Shown here: positions 3,185 to 55,327 of the stretch, one piece after another
Numbering within the stretch: the first letter of the stretch is position 1
Layout of the letters: each line of letters opens with the position of its first letter
Virus record (IMG/VR): IMGVR_UViG_3300033066_000276
Span: 16,097-80,096 of that record
Length of the DNA: 64,000 nt
Reading direction: 5' to 3' (one strand)
From: a virus
Lineage: Duplodnaviria > Caudoviricetes
Translations under genes and position numbers: made by a program
Notes under the pieces: model-generated
The model's input: the letters and a program-made list of their open reading frames with translations, nothing else
Databases searched by the model: none
What the model was told of the DNA's origin: nothing

Positions 3185-5566
3185 TTAACCGACAGACTCG
3201 AAGAAGCTGATATCCCCTTCGCGGGTAATGATTGTGCGAAGGCGAATCTTTTCAACCGGGTACACAGGAACTAGGTACAGGTCAACGTTCAGCAACCCTT
3301 GCTCTTCATCCGACTGCTTGTTGTTGCGTCCATCGCACACCACCAAGAACAGCTTGAGTGCTTCCTGTTCCCGCAGGGGAATGAGGAAGGAGTTAATCAT
3401 CTGCTTGATTGTGAACTGAGCGAACGCGGCGTTTTGTTCAAACACCGAGAAGTCCAGCGCACTGATGATTGACTCTTGAATGAAGATCAGCAGGCGACGA
3501 ATGTTGATGTAGCTGAGCGGTGAGAACTTCGATTGCAGCGTTCTGTCACCCCAAGCAACGTAGCCACGACCGTTCTTACGAATGATCGCGTTGATGCCCT
3601 TCGGGGTGAAGATTTCAAGGTCACCTTGCTCGTATTCCTTATACAAGCCAGAGACGTTGTTCAGAATACCGCGATTGAGACCCGCAGGTGCATACCACGT
3701 ACCGCGCGTGTAGTCCGTGCGGGCGTAGATCGATGCCATCTTGCCCGAAGGCGGAGTGTAGCGACCGATGCTGTTGTACTGCGAGACGTTCTTCACGTCG
3801 GGGGTGTAAATAGCCGAGAACGAAGAGTTGATATTCAGCACTCGGTCACGGTACTCAACCGCCTTTTGCACTTCCTGATACTCGGGCGGCATATCGAGGA
3901 TAGCCATACAGTCGCGTCGTTGTTTCGCCAACGCGTCCATCGAGTATTGAATTTCAGGATCGCTGTAGCCACCGTTAATCATCATACGCAGCGGGTAACG
4001 CTCTTTGTTCGAGAGCGAGTTCCAACCAGCGATAACTTGCGAGTTGGTGACACCCGTAACGGTCGAGCCGTTCTTGAGCCACTGCACCGCAGAACTGACG
4101 ACAAGCGTTGAGTACGAGTTGCCCGAGTAGGTGGAACCAAAGCGCACGTTGTACGCCGGATCTTCTTCGCTGCGATAACGAGTGTAATCCGGTTGGTAGA
4201 TACGAATGTATTGCGACTTGTTCGGACCTTCGTTGACCACTTGCATGATGTTGGTCTGTTTGCCGAGGCCGTTGACTGCTTCGTGCAGCGTCACAACCCA
4301 GCTCTCAACGATCACGGTCGGGCGATCCGACAGGTAAACTTCGAGCGAGAACTCACCCGTCCAGGCTTCCGCTTCAACCACTTCCGCCGAAGTAATTGTC
4401 GCCTGGGTAGAACCAAGCGTCACAGCAGCCGAGTCAATGACGATTTCGTGCCCGTCCAGGTGGCCGGTATCGAAGATGTCGATTTCAAGGGTAGCTTCGG
4501 TAGCGTCGCTTTGCAGATCACGATCCAGCGGTTGATCGGTGAACTTAGCTTCCAAACCAATCGGGTTCAGGGTAGAACGTAGTTCCGCCAGCAACAGGTC
4601 CATCGTATTGGCGTGACTGGTGGCATAGGTCACCGGATCAATATCTACACCATCAACTGAGATATCAACCACGTTGGCCGTAATCAGCTTGGTAGAGAAG
4701 GTCAAGCGCCACAGGTTCGGTCTGCCGATGTTTGGCTTGGTGATTCTAACACCAACCGTATTGCCGTCAGCGCCCGGTGAGATAGCGAACACGTCGAACA
4801 AACGCGGTTCAACGTAGGCAGCTACAGCAATTTGTCCTGCACCAAGCGTAACCGCAAAGGACACGACAGTCGGCTTTTCAACGCCTTCCGGCAACCACAC
4901 TCGGATCAGTGATCTGTTGGCAGTTGAGCCCGCAAGAACAGTACACGTAATCGTGCTGTTACCAAGGTTGGTCCGCAGCGACGCTTGCAACGCGACGGCG
5001 AAAGCCGTAATCGAAGCAGCGGAACTGGAAGCATAGGTCGTGGTGACAGTGACGTTGGCATTGCCATCGCCGATGTTGTAGATCAGGGTAGTGACGTTAG
5101 ACGCAACCAGTACGCCAGGGAAATCCAACATGATAATGTCGTATCCCGCACCTTCGTACCCATCATCGGAGCCGATGCCAGGATCGTAGGCATACGTGAT
5201 CTGCGCATCACTATAACCCGCGTCATAAGCCGACGTGGATTGACCCACCAAACCTTCATTGTGGTTCAGTGAGTTATGGAAGCTGAGGTTGGCGTACTTT
5301 GAACCGTTGTCCACGCGAAGGAACCAACCGTTCTTGCCATCCTCGAAGAAGTCGATCACGCAATCGTGCGCCTTACTGATGGCCGGACGCGGCTCACCAA
5401 ACAGGCGAATAAACTCTTCCCGGCCCGACAGAAAGACAGGTTCGTTAACCGGCCCTTTGCTACTGGCGAAAACACAGGAAGCGATAGAGGTCGATAGCCC
5501 TTCAATGACTTGATAGGCGTCGATCTCTTCCGAGTAAACACCTGGAGCCTGATAGAACTGCGCCAT
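3185..5566 (-). CDS. Contractile tail sheath protein
   Basis: N-terminal APGVYSEEID; C-terminal sheath motifs WYAPAGLNRG, GINAI, WGDRTL, YINIRRL, VVCDGRNN; 793 aa with inserted domains. Confidence 0.95.
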   Translation of the reverse strand: MAQFYQAPGVYSEEIDAYQVIEGLSTSIASCVFASSKGPVNEPVFLSGREEFIRLFGEPRPAISKAHDCVIDFFEDGKNGWFLRVDNGSKYANLSFHNSLNHNEGLVGQSTSAYDAGYSDAQITYAYDPGIGSDDGYEGAGYDIIMLDFPGVLVASNVTTLIYNIGDGNANVTVTTTYASSSAASITAFAVALQASLRTNLGNSTITCTVLAGSTANRSLIRVWLPEGVEKPTVVSFAVTLGAGQIAVAAYVEPRLFDVFAISPGADGNTVGVRITKPNIGRPNLWRLTFSTKLITANVVDISVDGVDIDPVTYATSHANTMDLLLAELRSTLNPIGLEAKFTDQPLDRDLQSDATEATLEIDIFDTGHLDGHEIVIDSAAVTLGSTQATITSAEVVEAEAWTGEFSLEVYLSDRPTVIVESWVVTLHEAVNGLGKQTNIMQVVNEGPNKSQYIRIYQPDYTRYRSEEDPAYNVRFGSTYSGNSYSTLVVSSAVQWLKNGSTVTGVTNSQVIAGWNSLSNKERYPLRMMINGGYSDPEIQYSMDALAKQRRDCMAILDMPPEYQEVQKAVEYRDRVLNINSSFSAIYTPDVKNVSQYNSIGRYTPPSGKMASIYARTDYTRGTWYAPAGLNRGILNNVSGLYKEYEQGDLEIFTPKGINAIIRKNGRGYVAWGDRTLQSKFSPLSYINIRRLLIFIQESIISALDFSVFEQNAAFAQFTIKQMINSFLIPLREQEALKLFLVVCDGRNNKQSDEEQGLLNVDLYLVPVYPVEKIRLRTIITREGDISFFESVG

Positions 5567-7580: not shown

Positions 7581-8690
7581 TTAATACTGCAACGAACCCT
7601 TTGCGACAGCGCGCGCGTTGCCCAGGGTAAGCGACAGGATTTCGTGGAAATCCCAGCCACGGCCCGGACGCGCGTCCGTGATGGTGGTGTTCAACTCTTG
7701 GGTTTGGATCGGACCACGATCGGTGTAAGCACCGAGGTTTTCCGGGTTACCAAACACCCAAATGTCGCCACGGGTCAGAACCTTCAAGGCTTGGTCGCGG
7801 AAGGCGTCGGTGATAACCGAACAACCAACAACGCGGCCAATCTCGCCGGTCATAACAATGTCGTGCTGCGAGATCGGGTCAAACCACGTCGCAAACGCCG
7901 ACGAACCGAGCATGTTGTTCTGCACGTCCGTCGCCATCAGGATGGTGGCTGCCGGGAGGCCCCATTCAGTCACGCCGCCTTTGAGGGCAGTGAGAGCTGA
8001 CGGGGTGAAACCACCCGAAATATAGAGCAGGTCGTTTTCGACACCGACTACATCATTCGCCAGGGCCAGGAAGAGTTTGTCTTCCTTGACGAGCACTTGC
8101 TCTTGAAGTTCAAAGAACTTCTCGTCGAGCAGGTCGCCCGGACCTTGGTTGAGTTCGATCTCACCGATCGAAATGCGACCGCGGACATAGAATTCCGGCG
8201 GGTGCATGTAGTAGCCGCGCAGCAGTTGGCTTTGGAGGCTGGCGCCGTCCGAAGAAACTGCAATCGCACGGGTGTCCTTACGACGAACTCTGATACGCGG
8301 GGGCATACCTTGGGTCGCTTCGCCTTTCAGCATCAGACGACGCATGAAGCCATCGCGTTCACCAGATTCGTTGATTTCGGCACCGATCAGAGCGCCAAGC
8401 TCAAGCCATGCGTCGCCCTTGCGGTCGTGAAACGCAGCTTCTACGGTTTCCCGCAGTTCGCGCTTTTCTTCCGCTGAGGTTTCAGCATAACGTTGCTGGC
8501 GATTGGACATCACTTCGCCTTGCGCGACTAGCTTTGCAAGGTTGGCAATTTCCTTCATCAGTTCCTGACGGCTCGACGCATTGATCTCGCCGTTGTTGCC
8601 AACAAGGTGTTCGCCCTTGCCACCATCTTTACGATAGTCGCTAGCGCGTTCCTTGCCGACTGTCATCTTCTTCCAGGGGTTCGGTCTCAT
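7581..8690 (-). CDS. Major capsid protein (HK97 fold)
   Basis: 369 aa downstream of scaffold and decoration-like genes; spine-helix-like ELQEQVLVKEDKLFLALAN, A-domain GEIGRVVGCSVITD, C-terminal LTLGNARAVAKG. Confidence 0.85.
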   Translation of the reverse strand: MRPNPWKKMTVGKERASDYRKDGGKGEHLVGNNGEINASSRQELMKEIANLAKLVAQGEVMSNRQQRYAETSAEEKRELRETVEAAFHDRKGDAWLELGALIGAEINESGERDGFMRRLMLKGEATQGMPPRIRVRRKDTRAIAVSSDGASLQSQLLRGYYMHPPEFYVRGRISIGEIELNQGPGDLLDEKFFELQEQVLVKEDKLFLALANDVVGVENDLLYISGGFTPSALTALKGGVTEWGLPAATILMATDVQNNMLGSSAFATWFDPISQHDIVMTGEIGRVVGCSVITDAFRDQALKVLTRGDIWVFGNPENLGAYTDRGPIQTQELNTTITDARPGRGWDFHEILSLTLGNARAVAKGSLQY

Positions 8691-38693: not shown

Positions 38694-38874
38694 TGTTGCT
38701 CTCCGGGTATGGTAGGCCAAAGTGTTCGTAGAGCTTTTTGTGTAGCCAGGATCGGTGTTCTTCATCGCCGTGTGCGATTGCCGTGAACAGTTCTTCGATT
38801 TCGTTTTGTAGTGCCGATGGGTACTTCCCATAGAAGGGTTGCACCGACCCCTTCATGTTAGGTTTTGTCGCCAT
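38656..38874 (-). CDS. Small phage hypothetical protein
   Basis: Start MATKPN after GAGGAG; AIAHGDEEHRSWL motif. Confidence 0.55.
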   Translation of the reverse strand: MATKPNMKGSVQPFYGKYPSALQNEIEELFTAIAHGDEEHRSWLHKKLYEHFGLPYPESNNEAGSSTDRTPS

Positions 38875-39091
38875 CGTTAAACTCCTCGAAGCTGATGCCA
38901 TCCTTGGTGATGATTGAACGAAGTCGGATCATGGTAACCGGCTTGGGCTCAATAGCGTAGATGTTGATGGCGTTGGTGGCGTAGTTAGCGACCACTCTAG
39001 CCTTACGAAACCGGCCTTCTAGTCGGTATTGAATACGCAGACGAACGACCGTGCAACCGAGCACCAAGGTACGCCAGAGGTGATACCACAT
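38858..39091 (-). CDS. 77-aa protein resembling the tail-sheath C-terminal domain
   Basis: TGATG-coupled start; PVTMIRLRSIITKDG-ISFEE vs sheath PVEKIRLRTIITREGDISFFE, 14 identities in 21 columns. Confidence 0.7.
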   Translation of the reverse strand: MWYHLWRTLVLGCTVVRLRIQYRLEGRFRKARVVANYATNAINIYAIEPKPVTMIRLRSIITKDGISFEEFNDGDKT

Positions 39092-52007: not shown

Positions 52008-52222
52008 TTCTTGCTGAGGACAATACCATCGAACGGAATGTCATCGTCGCCAGATGTGTCAAGGTGAAGTTGAATCTTGACGCCGCCGGGTGTGTCGAAT
52101 TTGATGTCTCGCTTGTCGAGTAGCATCTTCAACGCTTCGGTCACGTCGTCCTCAGTCAGTTGGATCTCACCTAGCGAACCGATGTAGTGGAGGTTGGCGT
52201 TAGGTGGTTTCTGGTTTTCCAT
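51995..52222 (-). CDS. Hypothetical protein
   Basis: 75 aa with GAGG RBS. Confidence 0.5.
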   Translation of the reverse strand: MENQKPPNANLHYIGSLGEIQLTEDDVTEALKMLLDKRDIKFDTPGGVKIQLHLDTSGDDDIPFDGIVLSKKWKF

Positions 52223-52458
52223 CAGCGTCTTCCTCTCGATCTCCCTTTGGGTTGTCCGTTTCTGGCTTCACCTCTTCAATAGGCTTGGCTTCATCGGTGG
52301 CGGGAATAGCATCACCGTTCTCTACGAACGGTCTATCTTTGTTGGTCATTGAACTCTCCATATGGACTACTTCAAATGCGTACTTGCCCAGATCAGGTTT
52401 AGGAAGCACGTAGTCTTCCTGTACGTTGAGTGCGCGGGCTACTGATCTTCTTACCCCG

Positions 52459-52680
52459 TCAATCATTCGTGATTGGACCTCCAGGGAAGTGATCGTCTTC
52501 AACCGGGGCTGTAGTTGTCGGTGTTTCAATTGGCGTGGATCGGAAGCACACTTCCTGTTGATTGATCTGACTCAAACCATAAGGAACGGCGACGAACGTG
52601 ATGAGTAGGATCGACCCTACGAAAAATGGAATCTTATACCACCAGCCGGGAAACTGTGACTTCTGTTGATGCTCACTCAT
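52459..52680 (-). CDS. Small membrane protein
   Basis: WWYKIPFFVGSILLITFVAVPYGL; TAATG coupling. Confidence 0.55.
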   Translation of the reverse strand: MSEHQQKSQFPGWWYKIPFFVGSILLITFVAVPYGLSQINQQEVCFRSTPIETPTTTAPVEDDHFPGGPITND

Positions 52681-53093
52681 TACTCGTACTCCACCAGCAG
52701 GATCGATGTTTCTTTGATGAACCGATCGGCTTCTGGTAGGTGATCGTCACAGATCACGGGCGTACCGAAGAGCATTCCGATCATACCAGCTTCCAGCAAC
52801 TTGACCATTGAGTAACGGTCGAAGAAGTTGTCGAACTCTTTGCCAGACAATGCCTCACGATCTTTGGCCGCAACTGCGAGTACGGTCTTGCCTAGATGTT
52901 TACGTTCTTCACCTTCTGCTTTCGACAAGGCATCGGCAATGGACGTAATGTCGATTGCGGGTACTGAGAAGAAAACAATGTTGGCGTGGTCTTCCTTGAC
53001 TTTGGCGAGGAAGTTAAGGTTAGCTTCGCCTGTGAAGTCTGGGAACTTGATTTTTCTAGGTGTGGTCATTCTATCTACCTTTGCTATTGACAT
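52680..53093 (-). CDS. 137-aa protein resembling the A-domain of the major capsid protein
   Basis: Ungapped manual alignment of its last ~65 aa to MCP (7752..7946) gives 16 identities, including FFD/WFD and G.IG...G..VI.D. Confidence 0.65.
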   Translation of the reverse strand: MSIAKVDRMTTPRKIKFPDFTGEANLNFLAKVKEDHANIVFFSVPAIDITSIADALSKAEGEERKHLGKTVLAVAAKDREALSGKEFDNFFDRYSMVKLLEAGMIGMLFGTPVICDDHLPEADRFIKETSILLVEYE

Positions 53094-53120: not shown

Positions 53121-53690
53121 TCATCGCACGCACCTTCCAACGTGTTGCCATTTTTTACCTTTCACCGCCAAATGCATAGCAGACTGACTCACGTTAAATT
53201 TACGAGCCATAGCGGAAATACTACGAGTAGGATGATTACGTTTGTAAGTCCTACGCGCGTAAGCTACAATCTTTTCATCAAGTTTCGCAACACCATTTCT
53301 CGATCCCTTGTTGGCTCGTCCATGACGTTGTGTGTCTTCACAGTTTTCTTTGTGTGTACCATACTTTAGATTAGACAATTTAGAATTTGCACGGTCCCCA
53401 TCCAAATGTCTAACTTCTAATCCCTTAGGGCATGGTCCTCGAAACGTTTTTATCACCAAGCCATACACACTTCTATTGGTAACGTGGCCTTTCTTACTCA
53501 GTGAAACCATTGGATAATCTTTATCGCCAGGAGTCTGGCACAAAAGTTTTCCTTTATGGATACACGTTGTCCAAGTGCCCCACATATTTCTTTTGCGTAT
53601 CTTTCTAGTCAGGCTTCGCACTCGACCAAGATTGGATACTTGATAGAGATTTTTGTATCCTACTATGTCTTTCCAGATTTCTTTAGTCAT
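53121..53690 (-). CDS. NUMOD4-HNH homing endonuclease
   Basis: EIWKDIVGYKNLYQVSNLGRVRS, VRHLDGDRANSKLSNLKYGTHKEN; likely ATG at 53690; paralogue of 42805..43371. Confidence 0.9.
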   Translation of the reverse strand: MTKEIWKDIVGYKNLYQVSNLGRVRSLTRKIRKRNMWGTWTTCIHKGKLLCQTPGDKDYPMVSLSKKGHVTNRSVYGLVIKTFRGPCPKGLEVRHLDGDRANSKLSNLKYGTHKENCEDTQRHGRANKGSRNGVAKLDEKIVAYARRTYKRNHPTRSISAMARKFNVSQSAMHLAVKGKKWQHVGRCVR

Positions 53691-54255
53691 CGCTATAACG
53701 GGATTTTGTTCTTGGACCAGAGTCATTTTCCTGTTTAACAAGATTCAAGGCTTCGATGACTGCTTTAACACGCCAAGCAGCTTGGTCAATGTCATCGATT
53801 GCCATGTCAGCGGATTCAATCACCGCCTCAAGGCGTTTGGTTACTTTGAGTACCGGAGCTAGTACACGACGAATTGCTCCATCACGCTCAGCCGCCGTTC
53901 GCATTTCCTTGAGCAGACCCTTGTACTCGTCTTTCAAGTGATCGGCAGTTTCTTCAAAAGCCGCCTCAAGTATGCTCGACCAACGAAACACATGCAGCTT
54001 GATCTCCACCAAGCGACTACGGCGCGAACCATTTGACAGAGATACCTCCACCAAATGGCGCGACGCCGATTGCAATAGTTCACTGGCTGTGAGACTTCGG
54101 TCAAGGCGAGCCGCGTGTGTTGACTCAATCTCCTTGACCAAAGCTCTGGTGTCAGGCAAGTTCTTCGACGATGCCTTTTTCAGCAGCCGAATAACGTGCT
54201 CGTCTTCTTTAGCCCGACGAAGGAACGAAACGTTCTTTACGGTCACGTTGGGCAC
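53683..54255 (-). CDS. Coiled-coil protein, possibly UvsY-like recombination mediator
   Basis: All-helical; TAAERDGAI...IDDID...WRVKAVIE resembles the UvsY C-terminus; replication context. Confidence 0.35.
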   Translation of the reverse strand: MPNVTVKNVSFLRRAKEDEHVIRLLKKASSKNLPDTRALVKEIESTHAARLDRSLTASELLQSASRHLVEVSLSNGSRRSRLVEIKLHVFRWSSILEAAFEETADHLKDEYKGLLKEMRTAAERDGAIRRVLAPVLKVTKRLEAVIESADMAIDDIDQAAWRVKAVIEALNLVKQENDSGPRTKSRYSDD

Positions 54256-54811: not shown

Positions 54812-55327
54812 TTAATTCATTCCTATAGTCCAGTGTTGATCGTTGACAATGTAAGAGATCGTTGATCGAGCTACGTTGAACTTCTTTGCGATAGCCTTCC
54901 CGCTATATTTACCTGGGTGGTGAGGAACATAATGCTTCCTGATCCAAGCAACTTGTGCAACTGTTAATTCCGCTCTAGGATTTTTCTCACCCCAGGTTTG
55001 TCGTTTCTTATTAACCTTGTCCTCAACGTTACTCGCATGAGTACCTTTGAACAAGTGATCCGGCTTCACGCATTTTGGTGTGTCACAAGTATGGAGCACA
55101 CATATACACGTCTTTCCCTTGTCTTTGTTCTTTGGTAGTCGTCCTTTGAACAAGACGTATGAAGCACGATGGGCGGTTATCTGACATTGCTTACCATCAC
55201 TGTCAACGAAGCTGAAATGTCCGTAGACTTCACCTCCACCTACCCAAAACCAACACCCTCTTGTTTTGCGTACATAAGAAAGGAAGCGCTTTTGGACTTC
55301 TTTTTTCCTAGTCGGAGTTAGCCTCAT
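54812..55327 (-). CDS. HNH homing endonuclease
   Basis: CWFWVG, AHRASY, VLHTCDTPKCVKPDHLFKGTHASN, C-terminal HTH. Confidence 0.9.
   Translation of the reverse strand: MRLTPTRKKEVQKRFLSYVRKTRGCWFWVGGGEVYGHFSFVDSDGKQCQITAHRASYVLFKGRLPKNKDKGKTCICVLHTCDTPKCVKPDHLFKGTHASNVEDKVNKKRQTWGEKNPRAELTVAQVAWIRKHYVPHHPGKYSGKAIAKKFNVARSTISYIVNDQHWTIGMN

Follow-up and report, generated by a model that had tools for sequence, protein, structure and literature searches.

A free-standing A-domain of major capsid protein descent encoded among the replication genes of a phage

The stretch of phage DNA analysed here (the window: 64,000 nucleotides, representing bases 16097-80096 of the 80,096-bp IMG/VR record IMGVR_UViG_3300033066_000276, for which CheckV gives a completeness of 36%) carries, among genes for replication, a small minus-strand gene whose product was described in an earlier note as resembling a single part, the A-domain, of the same phage's major capsid protein (MCP). 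The locus, referred to below as the mini-gene and its product as the mini-protein, raises two questions, namely (i) whether the mini-protein is truly derived from a capsid protein and (ii) what purpose a capsid domain standing by itself might serve. The answer to the first is that the mini-protein was shown to be a stand-alone A-domain copy whose ancestry lies with the MCPs of jumbo myoviruses of the PaBG/Lu11/phiRSL1 type (phrog_2522), and its origin from the MCP family is solid. With regard to the second, the function that we favour, with a probability of roughly 40% and judged from sequence, is that the mini-protein may act as a soluble mimic of unassembled MCP that is used in conflict, be it with a host capsid sensor or with the assembly of a competing phage.

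The longest open reading frame (ORF) at the locus is intact, runs on the minus strand from 52680 to 53093 and encodes 137 amino acids (aa), precisely as previously described; as a statement about the product, however, the figure of 137 aa is to be amended, as translation probably starts at M9 (position 53069) and yields 129 aa. At the first ATG the purine run AAGGAAG directly abuts the start codon without any spacing, the Shine-Dalgarno sequence AAAGG is positioned 8 nt 5' of the M9 ATG, the alignment of an orthologous protein (P0030) to the mini-protein begins at M9, and the 129-aa version was chosen by gene callers on 17 contigs from several samples, the protein being identical throughout. 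Since the spacing of AAAGG, the P0030 alignment and the gene callers all favour M9, the interval 52680-53069 was taken as the mini-gene.

Comparisons of individual sequences gave a faint signal of capsid descent. The ungapped alignment of 65 columns between the mini-protein and the MCP was recounted and again contained 16 identical positions; pairwise BLASTP of the two proteins gave a weak match (E 7e-4 for the single pair), and in an all-against-all BLASTP of the 96 ORFs of the record this pair fell at or beyond the E limit of 0.05. When the mini-protein alone was searched against the PDB using phmmer, capsid protein 8zvi ranked first and was matched in the equivalent region (E 0.083). Profile searches, which the earlier note had named as a check, produced significant MCP matches: when the 27 sequences of the MCP family were compared with the pair formed by the mini-protein and its orthologue, hhalign returned a probability of 95.8% (E 6.8e-9), the same pair against 16 MCP A-domain segments returned 96.7% (E 3.1e-10), and a seven-member mini-protein profile against the MCP family returned 96.4% (E 1e-9). 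Additionally, an hmmsearch with the MCP family across all ORFs of the record and the translated frames of L002, the contig that bears the orthologue, recovered P0030 at 7.4e-11 and the mini-protein at 2.4e-6, the next best match being at 0.028. The two-sequence mini-protein profile was furthermore run against 10 related phage records from IMG/VR (18-166 kb), and in every one (10/10) it found a single match, which was the MCP gene at the same stretch. When 50,697 phage records were searched with P0030 by tblastn, the matches were weak and almost exclusively annotated capsid genes, and the six top matches of the seven-member profile in the PDB were all MCPs (E 0.019-0.62, profile positions 30-125). 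A PHROG scan of the mini-protein assigned it to no capsid family and to no family at all, and a Pfam scan extended to E 10 listed just Tri3 and Phage_TAC_15, both under their cut-offs.

Homology to the MCP A-domain extends over the C-terminal two thirds of the mini-protein. The confident part of the hhalign alignment places residues 67-133 of the mini-protein on MCP residues ~245-312, a low-confidence extension places residues 34-66 on MCP residues ~215-244, and the mini-protein ends where the MCP runs on into its last ~55 residues. The retained portion corresponds to the core of the A-domain, which consists of a strand, a helix, a strand, a helix, the FDP...G-x-[IL]-G-x-[LV]-[LF]-G-x-x-V hairpin and the last strand; shared with the MCPs are FDP, then G-x-[IL]-G-x-x-x-G-x-x-V and then an invariant Asp. 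A likeness of the N-terminal half to the C-terminal domain of ribosomal protein L11 (E 0.16-0.65) was rejected as a chance match and was gone once the larger profile was used. In tblastn the MCP of the window shows 35-38% identity to, and groups with, those of phiRSL1, PaBG, Lu11, BcepSauron and the Rhizobium and Erwinia/Dickeya jumbo myoviruses. In a tree of the 69 shared columns the two mini-proteins constitute one long, fully supported branch apart from the 27 MCPs and not next to the MCP of the phage itself, the tip of the window copy measuring 1.3 versus 0.11 for the orthologue; in this unrooted tree the mini-proteins could not be placed inside or outside the MCP family. As a separate observation, the Lu11 genome (NC_017972.1, 77477-78340; locus L047) holds LU11_gp106, a RefSeq 'major head protein' of just 287 aa, which is matched by residues 31-110 of P0030 at 32.5% identity with a weak E value.

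The fold of the mini-protein was assessed by two routes. The language-model structure in the ESM Atlas (predicted template modelling score, pTM, 0.47; predicted local distance difference test, pLDDT, 0.52) has ten listed neighbours, all of them capsid proteins or short unnamed proteins, at template modelling (TM) scores of 0.50-0.62 (normalised to the query), and the five best rows align 109-120 residues and span positions 9/14-137. This neighbour search is independent of our own alignment, and the MCPs among its results bear out the kinship with the HK97 A-domain for which a fold comparison had been advised. The second route was a structure predicted from our alignment (pLDDT 51), with a strand at 40-45, helices at 49-58 and 62-69, a strand at 70-74 and helices at 76-88 and 93-102, followed in the C-terminal part by a hairpin at 104-115 and a strand at 130-135. 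This predicted secondary structure fits the A-domain plan of a five-stranded sheet and two main helices. When the pLDDT-51 model was compared with 48,161 PDB chains using VIA-align, the majority of the 50 leading rows were HK97 capsids and encapsulins (Z 4.9-2.5); these capsid neighbours are not independent evidence because the input alignment of the model includes MCP segments. Foldseek against the PDB gave no match for the mini-protein model at E < 0.3.

At 129-137 aa, compared with 369 aa for the MCP, the mini-protein is devoid of the N-arm, E-loop, P-domain and delta domain. With the N-arm, E-loop and P-domain missing, it is therefore unable to join a capsid lattice or to build a shell. 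Both the P-domain and the spine helix had previously been reported as lacking; the former is indeed missing, and the loss of the latter, which concerns most of the helix, is read from the low-confidence alignment.

To what extent the gene is maintained was evaluated through its orthologue. An exhaustive phmmer search of 1.8 billion representatives added a single genuine homologue, the 126-aa protein P0030 (E 4e-22), which is of equal length, about 40-42% identical to the mini-protein and conserved in its hydrophobic core and glycines. A second match, P0031 (1577 aa, with Cys-rich repeats; E 6.5e-9 through nine copies of a 21-residue stretch), was judged to be a chance match inflated by repeats. 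When 5.8 billion proteins were searched through a word index, whether with the mini-protein alone or with the pair profile, nothing emerged beyond the mini-protein itself and the one orthologue, and pattern scans of IMG/VR for the mini-protein, the pair profile and the neighbouring phrog_17451 protein returned no matches. The P0030 gene is located on L002, a 6,984-bp contig that is syntenic with the window and whose flanks are 74-84% nucleotide-identical to it. Along this synteny the protein identities are 88, 73, 89, 70 and 83%, then 40% for the mini-protein and no blastp match for the membrane protein next to it, and thereafter 62, 83 and 80%. The rate of non-synonymous change (dN) between the mini-gene and its orthologue is 0.51, as against 0.06-0.22 in the flanks, and the synonymous rate (dS), which is 0.85-2.0 in the flanks, is saturated in the mini-gene, so that no dN/dS ratio is given for it. 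As dN is below any plausible dS, the reading frames are intact and the lengths are equal, the mini-gene is under constraint, and the pseudogene-like selection that the earlier note had wished to see checked is not in evidence (intact orthologue of equal length, dN of 0.51 below the dS of the flanks). On these sequence comparisons either the mini-gene is changing at 2-8 times the pace of the genes around it, or a divergent allele has taken its place.

The same data allow one rival to be weighed, according to which the mini-gene is a decaying remnant of an ancient partial duplication of the MCP, or a fragment carried in by a mobile element, that is open by chance and without function. Such a relic would be in keeping with the terminal branch of 1.3 of the window protein (P0002) relative to 0.11 in the orthologue, the disappearance of some residues that are invariant in MCPs, the homing endonuclease gene inserted alongside and the absence of the mini-gene from most relatives. 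It is nevertheless very unlikely in view of ORFs that are intact and equally long in two phages with saturated synonymous sites, a dN of 0.51 that is lower than the dS of the flanks, a conserved hydrophobic core with its glycines, homologues that about 28 cultured phages from three or more genera retain at one constant position, and an endonuclease gene that is a later, polymorphic insertion missing from the orthologous locus.

The earlier note had implied that the fragment is unique, an assumption that no longer stands, as homologous mini-genes were found in cultured jumbo phages. One non-capsid match of P0030 by tblastn, a weak one, was gp251 of Erwinia phage pEa_SNUABM_5, a hypothetical protein of 126 aa encoded directly downstream of UvsX, and relatives of gp251 occupy the same slot in about 28 records of Erwinia/Dickeya jumbo phages belonging to Rivsvirus, Sasquatchvirus and Alexandravirus. 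Members include pEa_SNUABM_5 gp251, Y3 gp244, Alexandra gp247, pEa_SNUABM_22 gp247 and AD1 gp240, with lengths of 125-142 aa. Alignment of five of these UvsX-adjacent proteins with the window pair gave a probability of 95.0% by hhalign (E 3.6e-8, 72 columns), and the same five against the MCP family gave 81.4% (E 1.2e-5); the window-pair profile found exactly two matches each in pEa_SNUABM_5 and Y3, these being the MCP and the mini-gene. The cultured-phage mini-proteins are 35, 48 and 31% identical where the adjoining UvsX proteins are 57, 95 and 79% identical. The UvsX-adjacent proteins thus resemble the mini-protein in size (125-142 versus 126-129 aa), in their replication/recombination setting and in outpacing their neighbours; they differ in having 18-20% identity to the window protein and in the gene upstream, which is UvsX in these phages and the HNH endonuclease and phrog_17451 genes in the window. 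The window gene and the Erwinia-phage genes may go back to a single excision of the A-domain or to several.

The two-sequence profile, within the limits of its sensitivity, picked up no free-standing copy in the 10 IMG/VR relatives or in the Lu11, PaBG and phiRSL1 records. The relatives without a detected copy have MCPs that are 32-41% identical to that of the window. They include G003, an IMG/VR genome of 165,822 bp with direct terminal repeats that is rated 100% complete, in which the MCP is 37% identical, no mini-gene was detected, and the corresponding locus (L041) consists of a primase-like gene, then a phrog_17451 homologue and then unrelated genes. From this genome the size of genomes in the group can be estimated, and its gene order demonstrates that the slot after phrog_17451 is variable.

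This distribution bears on a second rival, in which the mini-protein would regulate or chaperone the head assembly of its own phage, either by capping the A-domain contact face on freshly synthesised MCP or as a small ring on which capsomers are nucleated or templated, and would thereby set when and how a very large capsid assembles. Jumbo capsids require many accessory head proteins, the core motif is kept in the mini-protein, and the domain to which it is homologous is one whose two main helices make intra-capsomer contacts (PMC8346489). Nonetheless, such a role appears rather unlikely, as the mini-gene is situated ~44 kb from the head module and among replication genes, relatives that share the MCP family, the complete genome included, yielded no copy, and the gene outpaces its flanks, which would be unusual for an assembly factor that has to fit a conserved MCP.

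With regard to genomic setting, the minus strand carries 84 of the 96 crudely called ORFs of the 80-kb record, and the mini-gene, flanked by the DNA polymerase/clamp module and the helicase module, runs in the same direction as both and lies outside the head-morphogenesis module, the MCP gene being ~44 kb distant (Table 1). Both the distance of 44 kb from the capsid gene and the position among non-structural genes had been stated correctly in the original description. A promoter and terminator scan at the mini-gene identified no signal of its own above chance. From its place in the replication region, its direction and the lack of signals of its own, it is argued that the gene would be expressed before or alongside the late genes.

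Table 1. Positions of the mini-gene, its neighbours and the MCP gene in the window
Feature	Position	Strand	Remarks
Major capsid protein (MCP), parent family of the mini-protein	7581..8690	-	369 aa; phrog_2522 'major head protein' E 4.5e-60; PDB 6wkk MCP E 2e-8
Hyper-divergent patch	52351..53072	-	Mini-gene, membrane-protein gene and start of next gene; no blastn similarity to L002
Single-pass membrane protein	52459..52680	-	73 aa; ATG overlaps mini-gene stop; position conserved
Mini-protein gene	52680..53069	-	129 aa from probable start M9; free-standing HK97 A-domain-like protein
HNH/NUMOD4 homing endonuclease gene	53121..53741	-	Pfam NUMOD4 and HNH_3, PHROG HNH endonuclease; directly upstream of mini-gene
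phrog_17451 protein, upstream neighbour	53683..54255	-	190 aa; phrog_17451 E 1.2e-24

On its downstream side the mini-gene is joined to the membrane-protein gene by a stop/start overlap (TAATG), and the orthologue of the latter is found in the same arrangement at 3247-3453 of L002. The membrane protein diverges jointly with the mini-gene, having 32% aa identity to its L002 orthologue and no blastp match at 1e-3. This close association is relevant to a third rival, namely that the A-domain was exapted for a role unrelated to capsids, for example as an oligomeric platform acting with replication/recombination proteins or with the co-diverging membrane protein. The archaeal free-standing A-domains partner with enzymes (PMC8346489), the Erwinia/Dickeya homologues always follow UvsX, and the TAATG overlap involves a conserved 73-aa membrane-protein gene that diverges together with the mini-gene; all of this would accord with exaptation. 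Start/stop overlaps are, however, common in the gene runs examined, and because of this the TAATG coupling says little; moreover, the neighbours differ between phage groups (phrog_17451/HNH versus UvsX), and rapid divergence is atypical for a partner of core replication proteins. Exaptation of this kind is accordingly thought to be improbable. As further observations on this side of the locus, the membrane protein shows a conserved G-W-W-x-K-x-P-F followed by the transmembrane helix and then a Cys, and the gene after it (52200-52529, minus strand) encodes 109 aa here versus 298 aa in L002, with a short C-terminal block in common.

On the upstream side, the HNH/NUMOD4 insertion is polymorphic, being missing in L002 and L030 and present in L031, L035 and L037; the gene is a later insertion and no part of the function of the mini-gene. 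In relatives without the insertion the phrog_17451 gene abuts the mini-gene, and the L002 orthologue of the phrog_17451 protein is 83% identical. The phrog_17451 gene bears the insertion at its 3' end and thereby acquires another C-terminus, the contigs being otherwise near-identical, and a second HNH-type gene (54812-55327) is apparently missing from L030 as well. The idea of an MCP paralogue split in two, with the phrog_17451 protein as its N-terminal half, was discarded: hmmsearch gave E 0.03-0.05 to the N-arm, but hhalign gave a probability of 0.6%. A short likeness of the same protein to MCP residues 81-121 (E-A-A-F ... E-R-D-G-x-x-R-R) is probably due to chance.

Elsewhere in the window, in an accessory region, the end of a 77-aa ORF (38858-39091, minus strand) is identical at 15 of 30 positions to the extreme C-terminus of the tail sheath protein (3185-5566, minus strand; 793 aa), with a BLASTP E value of 3e-6 for the pair and 0.001 within the proteome. 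This tail-sheath copy suggests that the window phage makes wider use of pieces of virion proteins.

To return to the favoured function, that of a soluble MCP mimic used in conflict, the following course of events is envisaged. The mini-gene would be transcribed together with the replication genes, such that its product would precede or accompany the build-up of the real MCP; the mini-protein would then offer the A-domain surface that forms capsomers to any binder of that surface, and its likeliest partner would be a host sensor of capsid proteins, which would be occupied without being triggered, or the capsid protein of another phage infecting the same cell. Three families of bacterial STAND sensors, Avs7, Avs8 and Avs10, bind the penton/hexon-forming (capsomer-forming) face of the MCP A-domain (bioRxiv 10.64898/2026.01.04.697583), and because sensors grip this very face the mini-genes suggest themselves as candidate capsid mimics in conflicts of a phage with its host or with another phage. 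If the mini-protein is a mimic of this type, its fast evolution relative to its neighbours and its dispensability in relatives would both be explained. A narrower proposal, that the mini-protein and its cultured-phage homologues are A-domain mimics which bind capsid-recognising sensors (of the Avs7/8/10 STAND type or similar) without activation, is considered unlikely; if true, the mini-protein would represent a protein-mimic antagonist of the pattern recognition of a virion protein, and the tail-sheath C-terminus copy in the window would be a second example of the sensor-mimic strategy.

Several points weigh against the conflict mimic. The confident alignment is limited to residues ~67-133 of the mini-protein, the N-terminal half being placed through structure neighbours and the low-confidence alignment, and our own three-dimensional models are of low confidence (pLDDT 39.5 for single-sequence AlphaFold, which is unusable, and 51), as is the Atlas model (0.52). 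Several nearly invariant MCP residues are altered in both mini-proteins, among them the arginine in D-A-[YF]-R, and given these changes the mimicked surface may not necessarily be preserved. A mimic bound to an immune sensor might, moreover, trigger it rather than block it. Finally, the fast divergence could equally be explained by a recombinational allele swap, as dS is saturated and a homing endonuclease gene adjoins the locus.

The significance of the mini-gene is that it constitutes a phage-encoded, free-standing A-domain, traceable in sequence to the capsid family of the phage itself, which is conserved yet fast-evolving and is located outside the head genes. Should mimicry prove wrong, the mini-genes would represent a capsid domain recruited to a new function; either way, a number of 'hypothetical proteins' from jumbo phages that have been studied closely as a group thereby receive an origin and a name, and the homologues in cultured Erwinia/Dickeya phages make the mini-gene open to deletion and assay.

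The mini-gene may be compared with capsid-derived systems that are already known. Full-length MCP paralogues that are built into shells are represented by the T4 vertex protein gp24 and by Ccm (PDB 7rwz), the capsid-size redirecting protein of SaPI/cf-PICI elements. The mini-protein is similar to these in being an extra capsid-protein sequence beyond that of the bulk lattice, and 7rwz is among its weak structure neighbours; it differs in that gp24 and Ccm possess the whole HK97 fold and reside in shells, whereas the mini-protein is an A-domain only and cannot enter a shell. With the phrog_2522 MCPs it has the sequence of the A-domain hairpin in common, at one third of their length and from a gene outside the head module.

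In a literature search for phage-encoded truncated capsid copies, decoys, dominant-negative capsid fragments and A-domain-only genes, no description was found, and the only published free-standing A-domains encountered were the Family 4 'A-domain encapsulins', which are cellular. These proteins (PF08967, DUF1884; PDB 2PK8) consist of the HK97 A-domain alone, their N- and C-terminal parts having been lost (Andreas and Giessen 2021, PMC8346489). They occur in hyperthermophilic archaea and in Rhodothermus/Rubricoccus, have very low sequence similarity to capsid proteins, and are encoded in a two-gene operon downstream of an enzyme gene (hydrogenase, OsmC, GAPDH or DeoC) (PMC8346489). The mini-protein is like them in being ~100-130 aa long and an HK97 A-domain alone. 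On the low-confidence model of pLDDT 51, VIA-align listed 2PK8 among the neighbours of the mini-protein (Z 3.3, root-mean-square deviation 3.6 over 70 residues). Unlike the DUF1884 proteins, the mini-protein has no PF08967 match even at E 10, and its gene neighbours are the phrog_17451, HNH endonuclease and membrane-protein genes in place of an enzyme-operon arrangement; furthermore, it is encoded by a phage, has significant homology to the MCP family of that same phage and is fast-evolving.

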